DNA of 61,268 nt from an uncultured archaeon (GTDB lineage: Archaea; Aenigmatarchaeota; Aenigmatarchaeia; QMZS01), in the NCBI GenBank assembly GCA_964547015.1, contig CAZJKT010000002.1, positions 5,841 to 67,108 of the forward strand, in the 5' to 3' direction. This document shows positions 86-59,599 of the stretch, piece by piece. Numbering within the stretch: position 1 is the first letter of the stretch; the number at the start of each line of letters is the position of its first letter. The position numbers and the translations under genes were made by a program. Below the pieces are notes generated by a model that was not told where the DNA came from, did not search any database, and was given only the letters and a program-made list of their open reading frames with translations.

Positions 86-340
86 GAAGGCAGCGCTAAC
101 TAAGATAAAAAGAAAACAAAATCGGTCAAGCGCCAAAAGTCAAATCCGATTTCATTATTCGTCGTCTTCCATTACCTAATACGTAAAGTATTTAAATAAA
201 GTGTGTGGTGCATTATATACATTCAATACTACAAATATATCTAAACAGGTATCTTTAAATAAAAAAATTAACCTACCTTAACAGATAAGTATATATATTG
301 GCTAATTTTAGGGTTTTTAAGCTTAAAATTGATTAAAATA

Positions 341-5343: not shown

Positions 5344-6408
5344 ATGGACATCAGCCTGATTAAAAAGCTAAGCGAGGCGAGCGGGGTTTCCGGATTTGAA
5401 AGCGAAGTAAGGGAGATTATCAAAAAGGAGGTCGAAAAGTATGCAGATTCTGTTCGGGTCGACAACATGGGAAACCTTATTGCGCTTAAAAAGGGCGCCG
5501 GCAAGAACAAGAAGAAAGTCGCTTTGGTGGCGCATATGGACGAAATCGGACTTCTCGTCAAAAGGTTTGAAAAAGGGTTTGTAGAATTCACAAAAATTGG
5601 GGGCATAGACAACCGAATTCTTTTAAGCCAGAGGGTTATCATTAAAGGAAAAAAAGATATTGAGGGGGTTATAGGCTCAAAGCCCATCCACTTGCAAAAA
5701 AAAGAGGAATGGGAAAAAGTAATAAAACACGACGATATGTATATTGAAGTAGGCCTTGTTGAAGAAAAAAAGAAAAAAGGCGAAAAAAAAGAACCGGAAA
5801 ATCCGGGCCTCGGAATTGAGCTCGGCCTTCCAATTTCATTTAAGTCAGAATTTCGCCAGCTCCAAAAAAACACCTACTGCGGAAAGGCCCTTGACAACAG
5901 GCTTGGGGTTTACGCGCTCATAGACATATTAAAAAGAACAAAAAAGCCCAAAAACGACCTTTATTTCGTGTTCTCAACCCAGGAGGAGGTCGGGCTTAAG
6001 GGGGCGAGAACTGCCACCTACTCGATAAACCCCGACCTTGCAATTATTCTAGATACCTCAATTGCAGGCGATACACCAATGGTGTCGAAAAAAGACTCTG
6101 AACTTGCCCTGGGAAAGGGCGTTTCAATTACGATAATTGAAGCCGGAGGGCAGGGAATAATTGTCCCGGAGGCAATCCGAAATTATTTAGTTAATACCGC
6201 AAAGGAAAATAAAATCAAATATCAGCTGGAAATCGTGGAAGGGGGAATGACAGATGCCGCAATCGTGCAACTCATAAAAGAAGGAATTTTATGCGGCTCT
6301 TTAGGAATACCTGTAAGAAATATCCACACCCCAAACGAGATTTTTGACGGGCGCGACCTCGCCGAAGCCATCAAACTGACTGAGCTTACCGCAGATAATT
6401 GGAAATAG
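5344..6408 (+). CDS. M42-family (TET/FrvX-type) aminopeptidase
   Basis: MDISLIKKLSEASGVSGFESEVREII...VDNMGNLIA...VAHMDEIG is typical of peptidase M42. The first ATG is at 5344 (the track start 5335 is TTG). A Lys/Glu-rich insert (EEKKKKGEKKEPENPG) is present. Confidence 0.8.
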   Translation: MDISLIKKLSEASGVSGFESEVREIIKKEVEKYADSVRVDNMGNLIALKKGAGKNKKKVALVAHMDEIGLLVKRFEKGFVEFTKIGGIDNRILLSQRVIIKGKKDIEGVIGSKPIHLQKKEEWEKVIKHDDMYIEVGLVEEKKKKGEKKEPENPGLGIELGLPISFKSEFRQLQKNTYCGKALDNRLGVYALIDILKRTKKPKNDLYFVFSTQEEVGLKGARTATYSINPDLAIILDTSIAGDTPMVSKKDSELALGKGVSITIIEAGGQGIIVPEAIRNYLVNTAKENKIKYQLEIVEGGMTDAAIVQLIKEGILCGSLGIPVRNIHTPNEIFDGRDLAEAIKLTELTADNWK

Positions 6409-32404: not shown

Positions 32405-33595
32405 TTAAGCGTCGATCTCTTTTTGTTTCCTTCTCCTAAGGATATTATTGACCTTGCTTTTTGCAATGGAAAGTTTTGACCCTTTATTTTTCATTTCTGC
32501 GGATTTTTGTATTTGGGATTCATACATTAAAAGAACTTTCTCAATCGTCTTGTCGGCTGAATGTTTTGACACCTCTTTTAGGCAAAGTTTTGAGAGCTTT
32601 TTTCGGTTGGCATACGCCAAATCTATTTTTCGGCTCAAGTCATCAATATTTCCGCTTTCATAAAGGTAGCCGGTCCTTGCATTTTTTATAGTTTCCTCAA
32701 GGGCCATTTCGCTCGCCCCGACAACCGGAGTCCCGCAAGCCATAGCTTCCAGTGCAACAAGCCCCTGGGTTTCGGCAATGGAAGGAAAAACAAATACATC
32801 AAGCGCAGAATAAAAAGCCCTCTGGTCTTCCTTGCTCAAAAAACCGAAAAAAGATATATTCTTTTTTCTCTTTGCAAGCCTTCGGTAATGGGCCTCAGCG
32901 GGCCCGTTCCCAATAATCACAATTTTTCCCTCAAACTTTCCGGAAACATTTATCAAATCCTCAAGCCTTTTTTCATGGCACAGCCTTCCGCAGTACCCTA
33001 TAAGCTTTTCATCGCCAATGCAGTATTTTTCCCTGAATAAATCCCTATCGACCGGCCGAAAAAAGTCCAGATCCACCCCGTTAGAGAGGACAACCGGATT
33101 TTTTATGCCTTTCTGTATGAGCCGTTTTTTTATGACTTTGGAGGGGCAGGTTACAATATCAAATGAATTAAGGAGCTTTCTTTCCCAAAGGTTATATAAC
33201 TTGGTAAGCCCTTTTTTGAGGGGCTTTCTTTTTGTAAGGTATCCCACATATTCGTCACCGGGTGTGTGGAATGTATGAAGCTTTGGGACTCCAAGCAATT
33301 TTGAAACATAAGCCCCCATTATCGCCTGCGAAAAAAGCCCATGGATATGGACAACATCAAGGCCCCTTGCATTTCTAAGGACCCATGAAGGGATTGCAAT
33401 TTTGTATCCCTCGTAATACCTAAATCCGACAGACCTTAAGGGAAACTCGTTTTTTTGCGGAACATATTCACCTGACGGGTAAAATAAAATGACCTCATGT
33501 CCCGCCTCTTCAAGCTTTCTTTTCCACAGATTGATTGTGTAGGTTACCCCGTTTATCTGCGGGAAATATGTGTCTGTAAAGATTCCAATTCTCAT
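32405..33595 (-). CDS. GT4-family glycosyltransferase
   Basis: MRIGIFTDTYFPQINGVTYTI... and the C-terminal E..G...LEAMACGTPVV motif fit GT4. Confidence 0.7.
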   Translation of the reverse strand: MRIGIFTDTYFPQINGVTYTINLWKRKLEEAGHEVILFYPSGEYVPQKNEFPLRSVGFRYYEGYKIAIPSWVLRNARGLDVVHIHGLFSQAIMGAYVSKLLGVPKLHTFHTPGDEYVGYLTKRKPLKKGLTKLYNLWERKLLNSFDIVTCPSKVIKKRLIQKGIKNPVVLSNGVDLDFFRPVDRDLFREKYCIGDEKLIGYCGRLCHEKRLEDLINVSGKFEGKIVIIGNGPAEAHYRRLAKRKKNISFFGFLSKEDQRAFYSALDVFVFPSIAETQGLVALEAMACGTPVVGASEMALEETIKNARTGYLYESGNIDDLSRKIDLAYANRKKLSKLCLKEVSKHSADKTIEKVLLMYESQIQKSAEMKNKGSKLSIAKSKVNNILRRRKQKEIDA

Positions 33596-43437: not shown

Positions 43438-44718
43438 ATGGGGCGAATATATTCAACTGAGGCCAAAAACCATTCGGATAAGGAAATTACCCTAAACGGA
43501 TGGGTAGATACTATAAGAGCCCTTGGAAAAATCAGCTTCGTCATCATAAGGGACCGATGCGGCAAAATCCAGGCGGTAGCAAAGGCCGACTCACCTGTAT
43601 TTGAGAAGATAAAGGGCCTTTCCCGGGAAGATGTGATTGAGGCCAAAGGGACAGTAAAGCTCAACGAAAATGCGGCGGGCGGCGCGGAAGTCCTTCTCTC
43701 CTCAATAGATATCCTAAACAAGTCCGAGCCCATACCCATTGAATTCTCGGGCAAAATAGAGACCAGCCTGTCAAAAAGGCTTGATTACCGCTACATTGAC
43801 CTAAGAAACCCCCAAAACAGGCTTATTTTTGAAATTAAGTCGAAAATCACAGGGCTTTTTTGCGAATTCCTCCACAAGCAGGGCTTCATTGAGATGCACA
43901 CACCAAAAATCGTCTCTTTAGGGGCAGAGGGGGGAAGCGAGCAGTTCCCTATCCTCTACTATGACAAGGAGGGCTACCTTGCCCAAAGCCCGCAACTCTA
44001 CAAGCAGTTAATGCAGGGGGCGGGATTTGAAAAAGTCTTTGAAATCGGTCCGGTTTATCGCGCTGAAAAAAGCCACACCGTCCGCCATATTTCCGAGTAT
44101 TGGGGCCTTGACTGCGAAATCTCATTTATCAAAAGCTATGAAGAAGTCATGGACCTTCTTGAAGCCGTAATCAGGTTTGCCCTCGACCGCCTGAAAGCCG
44201 AAAATATGGAGGATATCAAGTCTTTCGGAGTTGATTTCCCAAAATACAGCACGCCTTTCCCAAGGCTCACCCTTGAAGAAGCATTCAGCCTTATAGGCCG
44301 CCCTGCAAGCGACCCGACTCCTGAGGAAGAAAAATTGATAAGCCAGAAAATCCTTGAAAAATACGGCTCAGACTTCGCCTTCATCACACAGTACCCCGTC
44401 GAAGCAAGGCCTTTTTACACGCATAAAAACCCCAAAAACCCTCAGTTGACAGATTCCTTTGATGTTTTTTTCAGGGGGATTGAAATCACAACCGGCGGGC
44501 AAAGGGAACACAGGTCAGAATTTCTCGAACTCCAGGCCAAAGAAAAAAACATTTCCATAAGCTCACTTTCCTCATATATGGAAGCCTTTAAGTACGGCAT
44601 GCCGCCTCACGGGGGTTTCGGGCTTGGAATAGAGCGGTTTGTAATGCAGCTTTTGGGAATTGAAAACATCAGGGAAGCCGTCCTTTTCCCAAGGGACACC
44701 GAACGGCTGACACCTTAG
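43438..44718 (+). CDS. aspS: aspartyl-tRNA synthetase, archaeal type
   Basis: OB-fold LNGWVDTIRALGKISFVIIRD, motif 2 YRAEKSHTVRHISEYWGLDCE, and motif 3 GGFGLGIERFVMQLLG..NIREAVLFPRD. Confidence 0.85.
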   Translation: MGRIYSTEAKNHSDKEITLNGWVDTIRALGKISFVIIRDRCGKIQAVAKADSPVFEKIKGLSREDVIEAKGTVKLNENAAGGAEVLLSSIDILNKSEPIPIEFSGKIETSLSKRLDYRYIDLRNPQNRLIFEIKSKITGLFCEFLHKQGFIEMHTPKIVSLGAEGGSEQFPILYYDKEGYLAQSPQLYKQLMQGAGFEKVFEIGPVYRAEKSHTVRHISEYWGLDCEISFIKSYEEVMDLLEAVIRFALDRLKAENMEDIKSFGVDFPKYSTPFPRLTLEEAFSLIGRPASDPTPEEEKLISQKILEKYGSDFAFITQYPVEARPFYTHKNPKNPQLTDSFDVFFRGIEITTGGQREHRSEFLELQAKEKNISISSLSSYMEAFKYGMPPHGGFGLGIERFVMQLLGIENIREAVLFPRDTERLTP

Positions 44719-53140: not shown

Positions 53141-54286
53141 TTAAACTAGCGTTCTCACGGCCCATTCCGTAAAATCCTTGAAAAAGCTGCACTTTTCAGG
53201 ATCATTTACCAGTTGACCGCAATTGGCATGCCTCTTCATGCTTTGCATCGGGCAAATGCCTCCACAGATAAAAACCGCAATGCAGTCCCTGCAACTTTCG
53301 TTATCCAAAACAGACCTTGAAAACCAGTTTTGCAGACTCTCTGAGTCTAAGTCTTTTCTGGATCTCAAAGTTTCATCGAATATGTCCCTGCCAAAATAGA
53401 TAGTGCAGTAGCCAAGTCTGCCATCCGCAGTGACAACAAGCGTGGCGGTATCAAAGTCCGAGGCGCAGGTTCTTAGAGCAGTAGATTGATATTTTAGTGC
53501 GCTGACGACCTGGGAAGCCGGAGAATTCAGCTTAATTCCTTCCTTTTCGCAAAAAAGAAGGACACTTTTCATTTTTTCCGAAAACAATTTTCCATTTACG
53601 CCCCAGCCATAGTCGTACTGGGGCCTATTGACCGTCAGCGAATCCGGTTTAAGTTCCAATACAGCCCACCTGCAAATTTTATCCAAATTATTCAGAGTCG
53701 CCTCCGAAGGGGTAATTAGTATAAAGTTCTCGACTTCGTTTGACTTAAGCAGATTAAAGCCTTTCAATGAAACTTCAAACGTGCTTCTGCCGTCGGAAAA
53801 CCTTCGATTCATATCATTTACTTCCCTGGGGCCGTCAAGCGAAACGCCCACCCGAAAGTTGTGCTTCTTAAAATACCCGACTTTATCATCGTCTATGAGG
53901 GAGCCATTTGTAGTAATATGATACTTTGGAATCAAATCGCCTTTATTTGAATCTACATAATCCACAGACCTTTGAATGATATCGAACTTCAGCAATGGCT
54001 CTCCTCCAAAAAAGTGGATGTGTATTCCTTTATCTTTGGCATCTTTGTTATGCCTTATGAGCAATTCAAGGGCTTTCCTTAAGGAATCCCAATCCAACTC
54101 TCCCTCCAATTTTTTTGGAGATTCAAAGCAATAAGTGCAATTGTAATTACATTTTTCAGTCAAAACCAATCTGAGATGATTCACCCTCACTTTTGAATGC
54201 TTGACCTGTGCCAGCCTATCTATAAAGAATTCATCTTCCGAGAAATCGGCATCCACAAGAAGGCCATTTTCAACCAGAAAGTCCAA
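53141..54286 (-). CDS. radical SAM enzyme with a complete C-terminal SPASM domain (peptide-maturase type)
   Basis: CNYNCTYCF (CxxxCxxC). SPASM motifs: C-x14-G-x4-C (CASDFDTATLVVTADGRLGYC), CRDCIAVFICGGIC (Cx2Cx5Cx3C), and a further Cys. The only available start is TTG, which is in frame with the upstream small ORF across one TAA. Confidence 0.8.
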   Translation of the reverse strand: MDFLVENGLLVDADFSEDEFFIDRLAQVKHSKVRVNHLRLVLTEKCNYNCTYCFESPKKLEGELDWDSLRKALELLIRHNKDAKDKGIHIHFFGGEPLLKFDIIQRSVDYVDSNKGDLIPKYHITTNGSLIDDDKVGYFKKHNFRVGVSLDGPREVNDMNRRFSDGRSTFEVSLKGFNLLKSNEVENFILITPSEATLNNLDKICRWAVLELKPDSLTVNRPQYDYGWGVNGKLFSEKMKSVLLFCEKEGIKLNSPASQVVSALKYQSTALRTCASDFDTATLVVTADGRLGYCTIYFGRDIFDETLRSRKDLDSESLQNWFSRSVLDNESCRDCIAVFICGGICPMQSMKRHANCGQLVNDPEKCSFFKDFTEWAVRTLV

Positions 54287-54292
54287 AGTCTC

Positions 54293-54478
54293 TTAGGCCA
54301 TAACAGATTTTCCAAGATTATCCGGGCATATTGCCTGTGATTTCTCAAAGCACTTCAGTAGCTTTTTTAATTCTTTGTCACATGAATAAATTGATAGATA
54401 TGTTCTATGGAATAGAATACAACCATCACCCTTATCGAATATTCTCACAAACGGAGAAAGCTTAAAATTTCTCCCCAT
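54293..54478 (-). CDS. small protein, possibly a PqqD/RRE-like peptide-recognition module (or the detached N-terminus of the SPASM enzyme)
   Basis: MGRNFKLSPFVRIFDKGDGCILFHRTYLSIYSCDKELKKLLKCF resembles the beta-strands plus helix at the start of PqqD-like domains. It is in frame with 53141..54286. The alternative start at 54508 overlaps the upstream gene. Confidence 0.35.
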   Translation of the reverse strand: MGRNFKLSPFVRIFDKGDGCILFHRTYLSIYSCDKELKKLLKCFEKSQAICPDNLGKSVMA

Positions 54479-55844
54479 GACCCTTTGATCTTTGCCTTTG
54501 CTCTTCATAATACCTATATGACTTTCTCTCCAAGGCTTCCTGAATACACCTGAATAAATCAGTAAATTCTTCCCTATCCATCTCGCGCGTCAAAATCGGT
54601 CTGCCTCTAAATGGATCCTCTCCCGCCTCAATCTTATGATGCAGGTAGGTCGCATAGCCAGACCAATTTACGGTATTAGGATCAATAATTCCGCTTGCTA
54701 CCGCATAATCCCAGAGTTTTGTGCCGGGAAAAGCCAATACGGGGCTAACCCAACCGGTATCCAGTGGCTCTTCCTCAATAAATCTGATTGTATCTTGCAG
54801 GTCCTGCTTGGTCTCAAATGGAGACCCTGCCATAAAGCCAGAAGCCACTCTTATCCCATTATCCTTACATACCCTTATTGCCTTACGATTATCCTCGACA
54901 GAAACGGTATTGTTTTTAAGATATCCCAGGGTTCTATCGGATCCGGTCTCGAAGCCAAAAACTATAGAGATTACATTCATATCCCCGAGATACTGAGCCG
55001 TCTCATTATCCATAGTATCTGCTCTCGAAAAGCATCCAAACATAGCCTCTTTATCCAAGCCTCTTTCTTTAATCAGAGCGCTAATCTTTTTGACCCTCGG
55101 TTTACTCAGAGCAAAATTGTCATCAAAAAATAAGACCGAGTCTATGCCGTATTTGTTTACAAGTTCCTCCACTTCACCGACCACATATTCAGGCGAAAAG
55201 TATCTGACCTTGTTTCCCCAAAATGCAGAACTTGCGCAATATTTGCACGAATGGGGGCACCCTCTTGAACTGATGATTTGTGTTTCCCTCGCAATCCTCC
55301 CCGTATCGCTCTGGATGGGCTGCGCATAATATGCCATGTCGAAGAGATCTCTGTTCGGATATGGTATCGCATCCAGATTAGAGATAACTTCCCTTTTATC
55401 TGTAGTTTTGATATATCCGGCTTCGTCCCTAAATGAAATGCCCTTTATCTTTCCAAGATTGGTGACCTCTCCATCATGAGTGTTATTGAGGATATCTAAA
55501 AATGTTCTTTCGCCTTCTCCTTTAACCACGATGTCGATATACTCCTCAAAACCGTTCCAAGCGCTATAATGGGTGCCACCAACGATAAGGGGCTTTCCGA
55601 GATCTTCCCGGTTTTTCCTGGCAAAATCCTGCAGCAAACCATGCTCCATCGTCAAGCATGAGACACCGATCAGATCCGGGTCATAGGCCGAAACATCAGA
55701 ATACATATTTTTTGAGGTGGCTGCGTCATGAATCCTGATATCCAGATTCCTCGGATAATATTTCTGCGCATAAGAAGCCAGGTATCCTAAACCCAACTTT
55801 GGATATCTGGACTCGGGGTTCAAATTTATTAAAGAAACCTTCAT
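54462..55844 (-). CDS. B12-binding-domain radical SAM enzyme (class B)
   Basis: An N-terminal Rossmann-like B12-binding region (MKVSLINLNP...LGLGYLASY...DLIGVSC), then SSRGCPHSCKYCAS (CxxxCxxC). Confidence 0.75.
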   Translation of the reverse strand: MKVSLINLNPESRYPKLGLGYLASYAQKYYPRNLDIRIHDAATSKNMYSDVSAYDPDLIGVSCLTMEHGLLQDFARKNREDLGKPLIVGGTHYSAWNGFEEYIDIVVKGEGERTFLDILNNTHDGEVTNLGKIKGISFRDEAGYIKTTDKREVISNLDAIPYPNRDLFDMAYYAQPIQSDTGRIARETQIISSRGCPHSCKYCASSAFWGNKVRYFSPEYVVGEVEELVNKYGIDSVLFFDDNFALSKPRVKKISALIKERGLDKEAMFGCFSRADTMDNETAQYLGDMNVISIVFGFETGSDRTLGYLKNNTVSVEDNRKAIRVCKDNGIRVASGFMAGSPFETKQDLQDTIRFIEEEPLDTGWVSPVLAFPGTKLWDYAVASGIIDPNTVNWSGYATYLHHKIEAGEDPFRGRPILTREMDREEFTDLFRCIQEALERKSYRYYEEQRQRSKGHGEKF

Positions 55845-55848
55845 AGGG

Positions 55849-56613
55849 CTATACCTCTACGGGAAAATCAACGAATCTTATATCTAAAGAGAACTTTTTC
55901 TCAAGCGGTTCCTTTAATGCACTGATGCCTACAGTTTCGGTTGCATGATGCCCCGCATCTATCAAATTCAGTTTGGCTTCTTTGGCAACAAGATACTCCG
56001 CAAGGCGGGCATCCCCTCCTATGAAAACATCCACTTTGCTTTTTACGGCTTCATTTACCAGATGCCCGGATGCTCCTGAACTGAACGCAATGGATTTTAC
56101 CTTTGCCTTTCCCAAAGGGAAAACTTTACAGTGGGCATTCAGCACCTTATTGACCCTATCAGCAAACTTGTTAAGATCTTCCTCCTTGGCCAACTCTCCG
56201 ATATAGCCTAGTGGAGAATCCCCATACATATAAAATGGCTTTTTGATGGCCATGTCCATTTTCCTGAAAAACTGTACTGCGTTGCTTATCTCAGGATGTA
56301 TATCTAGAGGTATATGTGCGCCGTATAGAGAGATACCATTATCCAAAAGTATTTTGATCCTGTTTTTCATAACTCCAGTCACCGGTTCGGAGTTGGTTGA
56401 AAACATTCCATGGTGAACGATTACAATATCGAACTTCTCTTCAGCGGCGTACTCAAAAGTTTCCTGTGAGGAATCTACTGCCAAGAGAATCTTTTTAACC
56501 TCGGGCTTACCTTCAACCAATAAACCATTCAGCAGATATGGGTCTCTAACTGCATTTATCCTGAAATATCCGTCCAGGAATCCTACGACCTCTGCCAATC
56601 GTGCCATAATCAA
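55849..56613 (-). CDS. NIF3-family (YbgI / 'GTP cyclohydrolase 1 type 2') dinuclear-metal protein
   Basis: The DPYLLNGLLVEG...ILLAVDSS...DIVIVHHG and ...DAGHHATE motifs fit NIF3. Confidence 0.75.
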   Translation of the reverse strand: MIMARLAEVVGFLDGYFRINAVRDPYLLNGLLVEGKPEVKKILLAVDSSQETFEYAAEEKFDIVIVHHGMFSTNSEPVTGVMKNRIKILLDNGISLYGAHIPLDIHPEISNAVQFFRKMDMAIKKPFYMYGDSPLGYIGELAKEEDLNKFADRVNKVLNAHCKVFPLGKAKVKSIAFSSGASGHLVNEAVKSKVDVFIGGDARLAEYLVAKEAKLNLIDAGHHATETVGISALKEPLEKKFSLDIRFVDFPVEV

Positions 56614-56647
56614 AAACTACCGATTATTTATATAGGTGAGAACTATT

Positions 56648-56716
56648 ATGGAAATAGCAAAGAAAGAAGTAAAAATGGGGTCAGTAGATGCCACAAGGAA
56701 TTGCGGGTCTATCTAA
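56648..56716 (+). CDS. unlisted 22-aa ORF MEIAKKEVKMGSVDATRNCGSI (candidate precursor peptide)
   Basis: Hand translation. GGTGA lies 9-13 nt upstream of the ATG. The stop codon TAA is 20 nt before the radical-SAM ATG at 56737. The ORF is too short for the ORF track. Confidence 0.35.
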   Translation: MEIAKKEVKMGSVDATRNCGSI

Positions 56717-56736
56717 ATGTTTTATTTTAGGTTTTT

Positions 56737-57630
56737 ATGGTTCATCATTCTTTAAAGAGCCCGTTTGTTATATTATCCAGCAAATGCAATCTAAACTGCA
56801 AATATTGTTTCTATAATCAAAACAAGGACCGGAATAACCTCGAATTAGATTCTAATGTCCTGGTCGATTTCCTGTCATTTAATTCAGGTATCATAAAAGA
56901 TATTATTCTCACCGGAGGAGAGCCTTTTATGTATAAAGATATCTATGTCCTATTAGATGCTCTTTCCAATAGCAATATCAAGGCACGAATAAACTCAAAC
57001 CTAACCGTTCTGGACAAACGAAAATTGACAAGAAACTTGGGGATTTTGTCCAGAGTAGACACTACGATAGACCACATTGATCCGGAGATAAATGACAAAA
57101 TCAGAGGATTTTCTGAAAAGACTATGTCTAACTTAAGATGGTTCAAATCCAAGAATATACCCCTAGAGATTACGATTCCCTTGTCAAAGAAGAACTGCTT
57201 TGATATAGAAAGAATCTATCTCGAACTGCGCAAACTTAAGCCTAAAGAGATTTTTATACAGCCGGTTGATATCTTCACCAAATCACTTGATGAAGACTAC
57301 AGCTTAGCTTCGCTTGGAAAAGCCGAGCTAAAAATTATACTGGACCGGTTGAAGCCCTGGGCAAGGGATTATCATCGCACAAGAGAATTGGGATTAATGA
57401 GAAACTATTATCTTAAAGATAAGTTTCCTGAAGGGGATTGCCAAATGAAAAAAGATCTGTTTGTTATCGACTCTGACGGCGCAGTCTATCCGTGCTTTCA
57501 CAGGCACGATCTCCGCTGCGGAAATATCTACTCGGATCCTCCTAAATCGATTATGGATGATTTAGCAATAAAACAGAACTCAATTGACATTAAAAAGTGT
57601 TTTGGTCCAAAATGCATTCCCCTATTCTGA
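56737..57630 (+). CDS. radical SAM enzyme with a twitch/partial-SPASM C-terminus
   Basis: CNLNCKYCF, GGEP, and the C-terminal C-x12-G-x4-C (CQMKKDLFVIDSDGAVYPC) plus CFGPKC. Confidence 0.75.
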   Translation: MVHHSLKSPFVILSSKCNLNCKYCFYNQNKDRNNLELDSNVLVDFLSFNSGIIKDIILTGGEPFMYKDIYVLLDALSNSNIKARINSNLTVLDKRKLTRNLGILSRVDTTIDHIDPEINDKIRGFSEKTMSNLRWFKSKNIPLEITIPLSKKNCFDIERIYLELRKLKPKEIFIQPVDIFTKSLDEDYSLASLGKAELKIILDRLKPWARDYHRTRELGLMRNYYLKDKFPEGDCQMKKDLFVIDSDGAVYPCFHRHDLRCGNIYSDPPKSIMDDLAIKQNSIDIKKCFGPKCIPLF

Positions 57631-58401
57631 CAGGAGCTCCCGTATTTTCTGCACATCCGCATCAATTATTATTTCTTCGAATATTTTCCCGAGTTCCTTG
57701 GAAGCCAGAGTAGGATCACCTAATATGCCATTGGGCGAAAATTCTTTTACATCTCCCTTCTCAAGAAGTTCCTTATGATCAAAGGGTTTTGTCCTGCCCG
57801 CAACTATTTTGCTCTTTCTCACCTTTTCAGGACACCTATATAGCATAGCAGAAGTTTCGTGCAGGCAGGCGTGGCATGAATGTAACCGGCAATCATCTAA
57901 TCTGTTTCCGAGGAATTTTCTTGCGGCGGTATCGACCAGATCATCGAAATCATCTAATCTCACAAAAATAATTTTGGCAGAAACATTTTCTCGGATTCCC
58001 TTCAAAGCATTCTCGATGGGCCCCATATTGCCTCCGTGGGTGGTTATTATGATTATATTTCTAAATCCATGCTTGTCCAGAGATATACAAACTTCCCGAA
58101 GAACCTGTTGAAACGTTTTTTCTGTCAAGCTTATAGTACCCGGAAAGCTCATATGATATTTCGAGCAGCCTAGAGACAATACCGGAGCCACCAAGGCATT
58201 GCCTAATTTATGCGCCACGCCTCTGGCGATAATATATGCATCAAGTGTGTCAGTATTTAACGGCAAATGCGGTCCATGCTGCTCCATTGCGCCTATCATC
58301 ACTAAAACATTCTTCTTACCCCCATCCATCTCATTTTTTATCTCTTCCCAAGTCATATCTTCTATGAACATTTTCTCACACCAATGGGAACATGACGACA
58401 T
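57622..58401 (-). CDS. creatininase-family amidohydrolase (MftE/ArfB-like)
   Basis: GAMEQHGPHLPLNTDT, TTHGGN and HACLHETS are the metal-binding motifs of the creatininase family. The likely start is MFIEDMTWEEI at 58371. Confidence 0.75.
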   Translation of the reverse strand: MSSCSHWCEKMFIEDMTWEEIKNEMDGGKKNVLVMIGAMEQHGPHLPLNTDTLDAYIIARGVAHKLGNALVAPVLSLGCSKYHMSFPGTISLTEKTFQQVLREVCISLDKHGFRNIIIITTHGGNMGPIENALKGIRENVSAKIIFVRLDDFDDLVDTAARKFLGNRLDDCRLHSCHACLHETSAMLYRCPEKVRKSKIVAGRTKPFDHKELLEKGDVKEFSPNGILGDPTLASKELGKIFEEIIIDADVQKIRELLSE

Positions 58402-59599
58402 CGCGAATATCTGCCTTCCCGGATAGATTCTGAATCATCCGGTCTATACCCAAGCCGAGCCCTCCGGTTGGAGGCATACCATAAAGTAGAGCTTCTCTGA
58501 ATGAGGAATCATATCTTTTTTGGTCTTTATCCCTTGAAGCCATTTGGCCTTCTTCCAATTTGGAAATAGTATCATAATCCGTCTCAACAGTGTAGCCATG
58601 AAAGATATCTACCCCATTAAGATACAGCCTAAATTCCTCCGAATAGATTTTATCAGAACTCTTGGCTAGGGGACATACTTCCAAAGGAAAATCATAAATT
58701 AGGGTTGGTGATGCCAGTTTTGGCAAAACCTGTCGACGAAATTCGACAAAACGCTCTGTGGGATTCTTAAAAGAGTGTCCTACCTCTTCCATAACACCTT
58801 CGAACGAGAACCTCTTGACCGGACTATTTATACCAAATATCGGAGAAACGTGAGCGAATAGAGTTTCTGAGAGATCCATCATATCATAATAATTTGAATA
58901 AGCCTTGAAAATATCCATTTCTAAAAACTCGGGAAGATATCCTTTAGATAATCCTTCGTTCCTATATACAGGCCCCACTTCATATATCTTCTCCAATCCC
59001 CCTATAATCAACAGCTTTAATTTTGGCTCAAGTGCCTTTCTCAAATAAACTTCTCTATCCTTAGCCAACCATTTTGCGGAGAACTCATTTGATTTTGAAG
59101 AGTAACTCTTGCTGAGAAGTGTTGGTGTGGACACCTCCAGATAACCTTCTTCGGACATCACATTCCTAAGAATTGCCAGAGCTTTCGACCTTTTCTTAAA
59201 CAGATCAAGCGTATCTGAATTCATCATAATCGATTCATGGGTATTGGCTCGGTTGGCTGGATTATTAAAATAGCCTGTGTTTGGAAGAAGTTTACCTGAT
59301 CTTTCAATCACACTAAGTTCGGTGATATCTAAATAAGGAAGTCCGTTCTTTCCATTATACACCCTGCCTTTAACTTCTACAAGGTCCCCATTTTTTACTT
59401 CGGGAGGTAATTCTAATCCATCTATGGAATGCCTCATCCTCAGCCCGCCAGATTCGTTGTTTAGGAAGTAATAATGAATCTCTTTGCTGGATCTATTTGA
59501 AGACACTATTCTTCCCTGAGCCAAAACCTCCTCGGCAGAAATCTCTCCACTCAAAAAGTGGGCTGCGCTGACAGTCAGCCCATCTTTTAACCCTATCAT
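58376..59599 (-). CDS. shortened, divergent class II lysyl-tRNA-synthetase-like protein
   Basis: OB-fold (GDLVEVKGRVYNG...LDITELSVI), motif 1 (RSKALAILRNVMSEEGYLEVSTPTL), motif 2 (YRNEGLSKGYLPEFLEMDIFKAY), and the LysRS-type motif 3 (ALLYGMPPTGGLGLGIDRM...IRDVVMFP). It is 407 aa, against about 500 for typical LysRS-II. Confidence 0.7.
   Translation of the reverse strand: MIGLKDGLTVSAAHFLSGEISAEEVLAQGRIVSSNRSSKEIHYYFLNNESGGLRMRHSIDGLELPPEVKNGDLVEVKGRVYNGKNGLPYLDITELSVIERSGKLLPNTGYFNNPANRANTHESIMMNSDTLDLFKKRSKALAILRNVMSEEGYLEVSTPTLLSKSYSSKSNEFSAKWLAKDREVYLRKALEPKLKLLIIGGLEKIYEVGPVYRNEGLSKGYLPEFLEMDIFKAYSNYYDMMDLSETLFAHVSPIFGINSPVKRFSFEGVMEEVGHSFKNPTERFVEFRRQVLPKLASPTLIYDFPLEVCPLAKSSDKIYSEEFRLYLNGVDIFHGYTVETDYDTISKLEEGQMASRDKDQKRYDSSFREALLYGMPPTGGLGLGIDRMIQNLSGKADIRDVVMFPLV

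Follow-up and report, generated by a model that had tools for sequence, protein, structure and literature searches.

A conserved 22-codon mini-gene in front of a small radical-SAM enzyme gene of an uncultured archaeon: a candidate precursor of a rare peptide-modification pathway

We report that a short open reading frame (ORF) standing directly in front of a small radical S-adenosylmethionine (radical-SAM) enzyme gene is conserved as a peptide in four lineages. It was found in a stretch of 61,268 nucleotides (nt) of DNA from an uncultured archaeon (GTDB lineage Archaea; Aenigmatarchaeota; Aenigmatarchaeia; QMZS01; assembly GCA_964547015.1, contig CAZJKT010000002.1, positions 5,841 to 67,108), and this whole stretch is called the window below. 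On comparative grounds, the mini-ORF is very probably a real coding gene functionally tied to the radical-SAM enzyme. We consider it likely that the locus holds the gene of a translated precursor, or scaffold, peptide belonging to a rare radical-SAM peptide-modification pathway, and that the peptide serves as a substrate of the radical-SAM enzyme or enzymes is, in our judgement, probable as well. The features discussed are collected in Table 1.

The mini-ORF and its conservation

An earlier note, made from the letters of the window, had pointed to a 22-codon ORF running from ATG 56648 to TAA 56716, with its stop 20 nt before the start of a radical-SAM gene at 56737 on the same strand, and this is indeed what the DNA holds. 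The encoded peptide has an N-terminal half rich in Lys and Glu, and a C-terminal tail that is conserved as [K/R]-[N/T/S]-C-G-S-[I/T]. The longest in-frame form of the ORF begins at GTG 56636 and would give 26 amino acids (aa); this start was rejected, because homologous peptides begin at the ATG-equivalent position. The mini-ORF is absent from the gene annotation, and no curated family, database entry or paper was found that covers the peptide: an exact look-up of eight versions of it among ∼15 billion predicted proteins found none of them, and five candidate peptides compared to NCBIfam and Pfam at E ≤ 10 gave no family match. Taken alone, the ORF is not significant, since 6.4% of the shuffled versions of the 123-nt spacer contain an ATG-initiated ORF of at least 22 codons ending at most 30 nt from the next gene.

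Contigs of relatives were fetched by way of the homologs of the small radical-SAM enzyme and of the orthologue group of a neighbouring creatininase-family gene. The earlier note had suggested looking upstream of homologous radical-SAM genes for a similar frame with its C-terminal Cys-Gly motif, and both are kept upstream of the orthologous genes in L001, L014 and L178, three lineages whose enzymes are 41-45% identical to that of the window. In these and in the window, an ORF of 21-22 codons ends with K/R-[N/T/S]-C-G-S-[I/T]-stop, 20 to 30 nt before the enzyme gene. The GC content of the carrier lineages spans 26% to 50%, and the housekeeping AspRS of the window and of L001 are only 39% identical. 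L014 and L179 come from one organism (100% identity over 1028 nt), and their composite locus has the mini-ORF, the radical-SAM gene, a convergent creatininase gene and a LysRS-like gene in the same order as the window.

Counted from the stop codon, Cys-Gly-Ser is invariant in the four lineages and is written with varying codons (Cys TGC/TGC/TGC/TGT, Gly GGG/GGT/GGC/GGT, Ser TCT/TCA/TCG/TCT). Further upstream, residue -5 is N/T/T/S, residue -6 R/K/K and residue -9 D/E/E. When the final 9 sense codons are compared in pairs, the fraction of differences is 0.19 at codon position 1, 0.37 at position 2 and 0.81 at position 3. Third-codon positions thus diverge while the amino acids are kept, which argues for selection on the peptide and not on the DNA; a substitution pattern typical of non-coding DNA, which the earlier note had named among the findings that would refute its proposal, was not seen. 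Finally, the three complete upstream regions were shuffled 200,000 times, and not once did the ORFs of all three share a tripeptide at -4 to -2. The conservation of the peptide is significant for this reason, and the fourth lineage has the same tail.

A short gene adjoining that of a maturase, with its core conserved over orthologous clusters, is what is generically expected of a ribosomally synthesised and post-translationally modified peptide (RiPP) made by a radical-SAM enzyme, and it is found here in four lineages. The earlier proposal of a candidate RiPP precursor has gained support from the conserved frame, the conserved tail and the class of the adjacent maturase; modification of the peptide is what we infer from them.

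Outside these lineages, no such ORF lies upstream of the small enzyme in L181 (35% identity) or L182 (32%). A scan of the GTDB representative genomes with the enzyme alignment found no syntenic locus, and the radical-SAM relatives that it returned were all remote (≤31% identity). In a scan of JGI metagenomes, full-length relatives were found only at 25-32% identity; a regular-expression search there for small ORFs with a CG[ST] tail gave nothing relevant, and L101 and L102 were the only ones among these relatives to have a small ORF with a resembling N-terminus. At the RNA level, the segment 56640-56745 has no significant structure (z = -1.1), Rfam has no match at the site of the mini-ORF, and no tRNAs were found in the structured-RNA check.

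The expression signals around the mini-ORF resemble those of the first gene of an operon. Such genes of the window almost never have a Shine-Dalgarno (SD) sequence; their upstream regions contain an A/T-rich octamer of the TATA type, with its 5′ edge ∼19-27 nt before the ATG, and usually 'tt' immediately before the ATG, which suggests that mRNAs are mostly leaderless or very short-leadered in the window. The sequence GAGGTGA, with a 6-8-nt spacer, is found only before internal genes of operons (for instance 12498, 18303 and 54462). The mini-ORF fits the first-gene pattern, as it has the perfect box TTTATATA at -21 and 'ttATG'; among the 42 upstream regions examined, this is the sole 8/8 TATA match within 30 nt of a start. 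The earlier note had read the GGTGA at 56635-56639 as an SD-like site. The motif is present, recurs 5 nt before the L014 start and is absent in L001; its role as an SD is weak, given that first genes of the window do without one and that the TATA box lies at -21, and it may even be outside the transcript.

Between the stop of the peptide and the enzyme gene, the spacer has a T fraction of 0.55-0.78 in the four lineages, versus 0.25-0.37 for the per-base A/T fraction, (A+T)/2, of the sequences concerned. In the window, ATGTTTTATTTTAGGTTTTT may be an oligo-T terminator of partial effect, or it may serve the enzyme gene, which has no clear SD of its own, as promoter region. By analogy with archaeal oligo-T termination, the spacer could act as a leaky terminator, giving a short and abundant precursor RNA together with some read-through. 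As to the host, the window looks archaeal by its gene content and its promoter pattern: it has genes for Trm1, for a CCA-adding enzyme of class-I type and for an archaeal-type AspRS, EF-1alpha is found on contigs of the same organism, and the L001 genome has aCPSF1 and a proteasome subunit.

Table 1. Positions of the features of the window and of related loci that are discussed in the text
Sequence	Coordinates	Strand	Feature	Remarks
Window	56648..56716	+	Mini-gene, 22-aa peptide MEIAKKEVKMGSVDATRNCGSI	ATG 56648-56650, TAA 56714-56716; stop to enzyme start 20 nt
Window	56627..56634		Perfect archaeal-type TATA box TTTATATA	5′ edge 21 nt before the mini-ORF ATG
Window	56635..56639	+	SD-like GGTGA	9-13 nt before the ATG, 8-nt spacer; function uncertain
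Window	56717..56736	+	T-rich 20-nt spacer ATGTTTTATTTTAGGTTTTT	Between peptide stop and radical-SAM start
Window	56737..57630	+	Small radical-SAM enzyme, 297 aa, no RRE domain	Pfam Radical_SAM, Fer4_12, SPASM
Window	57622..58401	-	Creatininase-family metal amidohydrolase	Pfam Creatininase E 5e-63; convergent, 9-nt overlap with radical-SAM 3′ end
Window	58376..59599	-	Divergent class-II LysRS-like paralog, 407 aa	Keeps motif 2 (YRNE) and motif 3 (GLGLGIDR)
Window	53141..54508	-	Larger SPASM radical-SAM maturase homolog	One in-frame TAA at 54293-54295
Window	54462..55844	-	B12-binding radical-SAM protein	Window-specific, absent from related loci
L001 (GCA_964384425.1, 26% GC)	5908-5973		Mini-ORF MKIKQKEIKLKIESHKTCGSI	Stop to enzyme start 27 nt
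L014 (50% GC)	142-210		Mini-ORF MELHVRKSKLSLKENHKTCGST	Stop to enzyme start 20 nt
L178 (GCA_964589765.1)	6730-6713	-	Mini-ORF ...SCGST	Contig begins within the ORF; stop to enzyme start 30 nt, T-rich; enzyme start GTG
L101	4299-5627	-	AlaRS paralog, catalytic domain only	∼400 aa
L095	2033-3238	-	AlaRS paralog, catalytic domain only	∼400 aa
L108	3301-4485	+	AlaRS paralog, catalytic domain only	∼400 aa
L115	1037-2515	+	ProRS-like paralog	
L101	1284-1388		Short Cys-containing ORF, 34 aa, MKIKRKKQVKINTSTSVKLCMQSGGCAEKPAKNR	Before the larger maturase
L003	86-169 (or 53-169)		Short Cys-containing ORF, 27/38 aa, MESKFNPEIEGINAENLPELSCTMSCQ	...SCTMSCQ
L115	4787-4843		Short Cys-containing ORF, 18 aa, MKKFVFKVTCARTSCQSN	...TCARTSCQSN; strong AAGGAGG SD, hairpin terminator

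The radical-SAM enzyme and its neighbours

The gene behind the mini-ORF had been described in the earlier note as coding for a twitch-type enzyme, and the comparison with homologs bears this out. Invariant in 26 homologs are the CxxxCxxC motif (C17, C21, C24), a GGEP motif and four C-terminal cysteines (C235, C253, C288, C293). Four cysteines suffice for one auxiliary cluster, so that the protein fits a twitch-like enzyme with one predicted auxiliary cluster, and not a full SPASM one. The traits of a SPASM/twitch peptide-modifying maturase are found at several levels. Pfam SPASM is matched with 25.2 bits (cutoff 21.5); a profile search of the PDB sequences gave SkfB first (E 1.3e-15, residues 7-283), followed by anSME, MoaA, viperins and PqqE; and the AlphaFold2 model (pLDDT 94), compared to the PDB with Foldseek, had CteB, SuiB, SkfB and anSME as top folds (TM 0.65-0.72). 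In NCBIfam, the best 25 of the 60 families matched at E ≤ 0.001 all score far below their cutoffs, the top one being ScmE with 61.8 bits against 400, and by these matches the enzyme falls outside every curated family.

The family is very rare. A word-indexed search of 5.8 billion proteins returned four relatives at 42-45% identity and then none above 33%, and an exhaustive phmmer search of 1.84 billion cluster representatives gave nine proteins only at E ≤ 1e-30. Public gene calls start the gene of the window at Met65 (P0001, 233 aa), by which the CxxxCxxC motif is lost; the alignment of homologs supports ATG 56737 as the start. The public call for the L178 ortholog is too short as well (266 aa), its actual start being a GTG.

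The creatininase-family protein is a candidate C-terminal peptidase of the MftE type. Its best NCBIfam family is MftE TIGR03964, with 143 bits against a cutoff of 172, and TIGR04448 comes at 124.5 against 235. Its orthologue group is well delimited (49-58% identity, with a clear gap down to ≤45%) and always adjoins the small radical-SAM gene. The two genes are convergent in the window, L001, L014/L179 and L178, with a LysRS-like gene behind in three of these. An MftE-like gene downstream had been mentioned in the earlier note; MftE is indeed the best family, and the gene, being convergent on the minus strand, does not belong to the same operon. It was rejected as an operon partner of the radical-SAM gene for that reason. 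Taken at their longest, the creatininase and LysRS-like ORFs have 26 nt in common (58376-58401); public calls give the creatininase 249 aa, not 259, and its real start is probably a downstream Met.

The LysRS-like gene is an extra copy, as a canonical AspRS-type enzyme is also encoded in the window (43438..44718). It adjoins the creatininase gene in the window, L001, L175/L180 and L179. Motifs 2 and 3 are kept in 4 of the 5 cases, and identities between lineages are 23-39%, which makes these paralogs fast-evolving.

A second, larger radical-SAM maturase is encoded 2.4 kb away in the window, in a minus-strand string formed by NIF3, the B12 radical-SAM gene and the larger maturase gene. Its L001 ortholog, 44% identical, is the divergent neighbour of the mini-ORF, and in L175 the larger maturase directly precedes the small enzyme. 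Its best NCBIfam matches are the nif11-type, CcpM, PapB and SCIFF peptide maturases, all below cutoff. The protein has ∼90 extra aa at its N-terminus, for which a beta-beta-beta-helix (RRE-like) arrangement was predicted by single-sequence AlphaFold2 on a 71-aa fragment, at low confidence (pLDDT 61). The in-frame TAA sits in this RRE-like domain (GKSVMA, stop, ETLDFLVENGLLV), and the 71-aa 'ORF' 54293..54508 is the first half of the domain. The same split is present in independent assemblies, and the L001 ortholog is uninterrupted. The split gene may be a pseudogene, may be expressed by read-through, or may give a split protein.

As for the remaining genes, the B12 radical-SAM protein may be a tailoring C-methyltransferase. 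On the other side, at a distance of 4 kb, there is a GT4 glycosyltransferase gene that the related loci do not share. Elsewhere in the window, inside a GT4 glycosyltransferase ORF at 32405..33595 and on the same strand, Rfam gives a gathering-level match to the H/ACA snoRNA SNORA17 at 32801-32923 (minus strand, 36.4 bits, E 0.0024); this is most simply taken as a probable false positive, or else as an archaeal H/ACA-like small RNA.

In more distant clusters, where the small enzyme is 25-32% identical, the module recurs with other components. L101/L102, L095/L096 and L108 have a larger maturase, a small enzyme, an S51 or S66 peptidase and a paralog of the AlaRS catalytic domain, the peptidase of L108 being of the S66 (MccF) family; in L115, the cluster includes a ProRS-like gene. 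In many independent loci, paralogs of class-II aminoacyl-tRNA synthetases (aaRS) of differing type adjoin paired radical-SAM genes and a creatininase, S51 or S66 peptidase gene. L003 and L013 have Amidohydro_2, a PP-loop ATPase and a GCS2 ligase, with the creatininase gene directly before that of the small enzyme, and in L003 the GCS2 ligase stands in place of the aaRS paralog. Short Cys-containing ORFs are found in L101, L003 and L115 as well, each of which also has a C-terminal-type peptidase (S51, S66 or creatininase) and either an aaRS paralog or a GCS2 ligase: MKIKRKKQVKINTSTSVKLCMQSGGCAEKPAKNR, MESKFNPEIEGINAENLPELSCTMSCQ and MKKFVFKVTCARTSCQSN, the last two of which have an [S/T]C...SCQ motif in common, are likely precursors of sister systems.

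A proposed pathway and its alternatives

The chemical steps that follow are a proposal, built on the observed conservation, enzyme class and synteny. The variable, Lys/Glu-rich N-terminal half of the peptide would be a leader, and the tail [K/R]-[N/T/S]-C-G-S-[I/T]-COOH the core. Binding of the leader would probably fall to the RRE-like domain at the N-terminus of the larger maturase, a role assigned to that protein because the small enzyme has no RRE. The small enzyme would then modify the tail, either at Cys -4, with thioether-type chemistry as in SkfB and CteB, or at the two final residues that follow Cys-Gly, in the way that MftC acts on the ...CGVY end of MftA. The creatininase homolog would cut off the modified C-terminal fragment, after Gly if MftE is a good guide, and the end product would be a small peptide-derived molecule and not a long peptide. 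Such a mycofactocin-like logic, in which the tail is modified and then clipped, is an analogy that we put forward tentatively, somewhat short of an even chance. The LysRS-like paralog could be an amide-forming ligase of the pathway, an idea suggested by the GCS2 ligase that replaces the aaRS paralog in L003. It could also be a resistant spare synthetase, since tRNA-metabolism genes have been documented as markers of resistance in amino-acid-derived biosynthetic clusters (PMC13149037).

Several observations weigh against reading the mini-ORF as the precursor gene of such a pathway. Only four lineages are known, one of which, L178, is represented by its last five codons only, and the likeness of the peptides at the N-terminus is a matter of Lys-rich stretches that could be compositional. 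Before the small-enzyme orthologs of L003 and L013 (43-44% identity) there is no room for a mini-ORF, only 14 nt separating them from the end of the creatininase gene. Peptide and small enzyme are for this reason not universally paired; L003 and L013 seem to use a different peptide, placed elsewhere in the operon. The small enzyme starts directly with its radical-SAM core and has no recognisable RRE, and a Pfam search of the N-termini of the larger maturases detected no PqqD, weak winged-helix matches being found in the L003 homolog only. Because of its in-frame stop, the larger maturase may be inactive in the window genome, and the pathway may be partly defective there. Lastly, the promoter geometry is ambiguous: there is one TATA box between the divergent ATGs of NIF3 and of the mini-ORF, which are just 41 nt apart. 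TTTATATA is near-palindromic, and on the opposite strand it lies ∼25-27 nt before the NIF3 ATG at 56607. The canonical spacing of ∼26 nt from TATA box to transcript start would put that start a few nt inside either ORF.

The mini-ORF could be a regulatory upstream ORF, or leader peptide, the translation of which would control expression of the radical-SAM gene by stalling on the tail or by coupling to the T-rich spacer, the peptide not being a substrate. Its place immediately upstream on the same strand, with a T-rich spacer of 20-30 nt in four lineages, would suit this role, as would the want of a clear SD before the enzyme gene, and arrest peptides can carry conserved C-termini. We nevertheless hold it to be unlikely, as conservation is centred on a Cys-Gly-Ser tail that lies beside an enzyme whose nearest relatives modify Cys-containing peptides. 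Moreover, the orthologous enzymes of L003, L013 and L175 sit in operons without this ORF, and the short Cys-containing ORFs of related clusters precede or follow the larger maturase, not the small enzyme that they would be supposed to regulate.

It is similarly improbable that the product is some other small protein, such as an accessory subunit, a donor of metal or Fe-S, or a carrier, with the Cys as a ligand or as an attachment site (CaaX-like lipidation). Such a function would account for a Cys that is always at -4 from the C-terminus, and for a small enzyme in which the classical leader-guided mechanism is not evident, given its lack of an RRE. Against this, none of the conserved neighbours is a prenyltransferase or a carrier-loading enzyme by Pfam, and a peptide of 21-22 aa made of a variable charged N-half and an invariant short tail has the typical anatomy of a RiPP precursor.

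A third possibility is a sub-case of the precursor reading and concerns the product. The pathway might yield a Trojan-horse antimetabolite or an aaRS inhibitor, by a logic like that of microcin C, or a non-canonical amino acid; the peptide would carry or scaffold a toxic analogue of an amino acid, with the aaRS paralog (LysRS-like in the window, AlaRS-like or ProRS-like in related clusters) as a resistant spare and the peptidase serving immunity or processing. Class-II aaRS paralogs of varied specificity do recur together with S51 and S66 peptidases, S66 being the MccF family. We give this little weight. There is neither an MccB-like adenylyltransferase nor a C-terminal Asn; the aaRS paralogs evolve fast, with 23-39% identity between lineages compared to 49-58% for the creatininase; and the L001 paralog is without recognisable motifs 2 and 3, which would be odd for a functional spare synthetase.

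That the mini-ORF is a chance ORF in a divergent promoter spacer, with promoter or terminator DNA as the source of the conserved bases, can practically be dismissed: ORFs of this kind arise in ∼6% of the shuffled spacers of one genome and promoter-like elements are present in the region, but the same length, frame and C-terminal tetrapeptide recur in four lineages at 26-50% GC, variation falls at third-codon positions, none of the 200,000 shuffles reproduces the tail and there is no conserved RNA fold.

We thus retain the precursor, or scaffold, peptide as the favoured reading. The pathway is rare and probably largely archaeal, with an MftE-like hydrolase and an aaRS paralog as its unusual partners. 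A much bolder version, which we would rather bet against, is that the locus belongs to an undescribed pathway class of archaea and some other uncultured lineages. A handle peptide of 20-35 residues would have its Cys-containing tail remodelled by a radical-SAM pair, a large enzyme with an RRE and a small, twitch-like one lacking it; a dedicated C-terminal hydrolase (MftE-like creatininase, S51 or S66) would release the product, and a class-II aaRS paralog of Lys, Ala or Pro type, or the GCS2 ligase that replaces it in one lineage, would append or recharge an amino acid, to yield a peptide-derived cofactor or antimetabolite. As part of this same conjecture, the logic would be mycofactocin- or pearlin-like, with aaRS paralogs replacing the PEARL enzymes. 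In literature searches, clusters combining a creatininase, radical-SAM enzymes and an aaRS paralog were not found described, the nearest concept being tRNA-deacylase-guided mining (PMC13149037).

The locus is a minimal system, made of a 22-aa peptide, a 297-aa enzyme and an MftE-like hydrolase. To our knowledge, hardly any radical-SAM RiPP or peptide-derived cofactor of an archaeon has been characterised. Mining driven by homology would miss this system, because gene callers skip the peptide and members of the enzyme family are very rare. The case shows that ORFs far under annotation thresholds can be validated by a conserved C-terminal motif. Should clipping of the tail take place here as it does in mycofactocin, a new small redox cofactor or an antimetabolite could result. 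The recurrent aaRS paralogs hint at a biosynthetic or self-resistance role of synthetase-like enzymes in RiPP-type pathways.

Comparison with known systems

Microcin C, with its heptapeptide MccA and the enzymes MccB and MccF, resembles the present locus by its tiny precursor gene, by a link to aaRS and, through L108, by an S66 peptidase. It differs in that no MccB adenylyltransferase and no C-terminal Asn are found here, where radical-SAM enzymes are central.

A second comparison is with the scaffold-peptide, or pearlin, pathways, such as that of 3-thiaglutamate with TglA and TglB (Ting et al. 2019, cited in PMC13149037). In common with these, a short ribosomal peptide may be a handle on the C-terminus of which a small molecule is built, to be released by a peptidase, and an enzyme of aminoacyl-tRNA metabolism is part of the cluster. 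No LanB-like PEARL domain was seen when the neighbours in the window and related loci were scanned with Pfam; class-II aaRS paralogs (LysRS-, AlaRS- or ProRS-like) or a GCS2 ligase are present, and two radical-SAM enzymes take the place of the TglHI-type chemistry.

Closer in enzymology are the sactipeptide and ranthipeptide systems. SkfB is the best sequence match of the small enzyme, CteB, SuiB and SkfB are its best folds, and the candidate substrate has an invariant Cys; the larger maturase scores best against models of ranthipeptide, SCIFF and nif11-type maturases. Unlike SkfB and CteB, the small enzyme has no N-terminal RRE, and its family scores are far below curated cutoffs. Unlike the precursors of these systems, the peptide has a single Cys four residues from its end and a core of ∼5 residues, and the typical transporter or immunity genes of bacteriocin clusters are not found beside it.

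Mycofactocin shares the most features with the locus. Both have a very short precursor with Cys-Gly and exactly two last residues (CGVY in MftA, CGSI or CGST here), an adjoining radical-SAM enzyme of the SPASM/twitch group, and a creatininase-family hydrolase, for which MftE is the best-scoring family here. The echo of the MftA C-terminus that the earlier note had heard holds to this extent and not beyond it. The peptide has no GVY tail and matches no curated precursor model (NCBIfam and Pfam, E ≤ 10), the 297-aa small enzyme has the motif for one auxiliary cluster and MftC is not among the best 25 of its 60 NCBIfam matches, and the creatininase homolog, at 143 bits, stays under the 172-bit MftE cutoff. 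Genes for MftB (the RRE chaperone), MftD and MftF are absent, the neighbours being NIF3, the B12 radical-SAM, SPASM radical-SAM and LysRS-like genes and GT4. Of these, the LysRS-like paralog, the larger second maturase and the B12 radical-SAM gene are extra partners with respect to mycofactocin, and the host is archaeal. Judged on its genes, the locus is not a mycofactocin system; mycofactocin is its closest analogue in logic.

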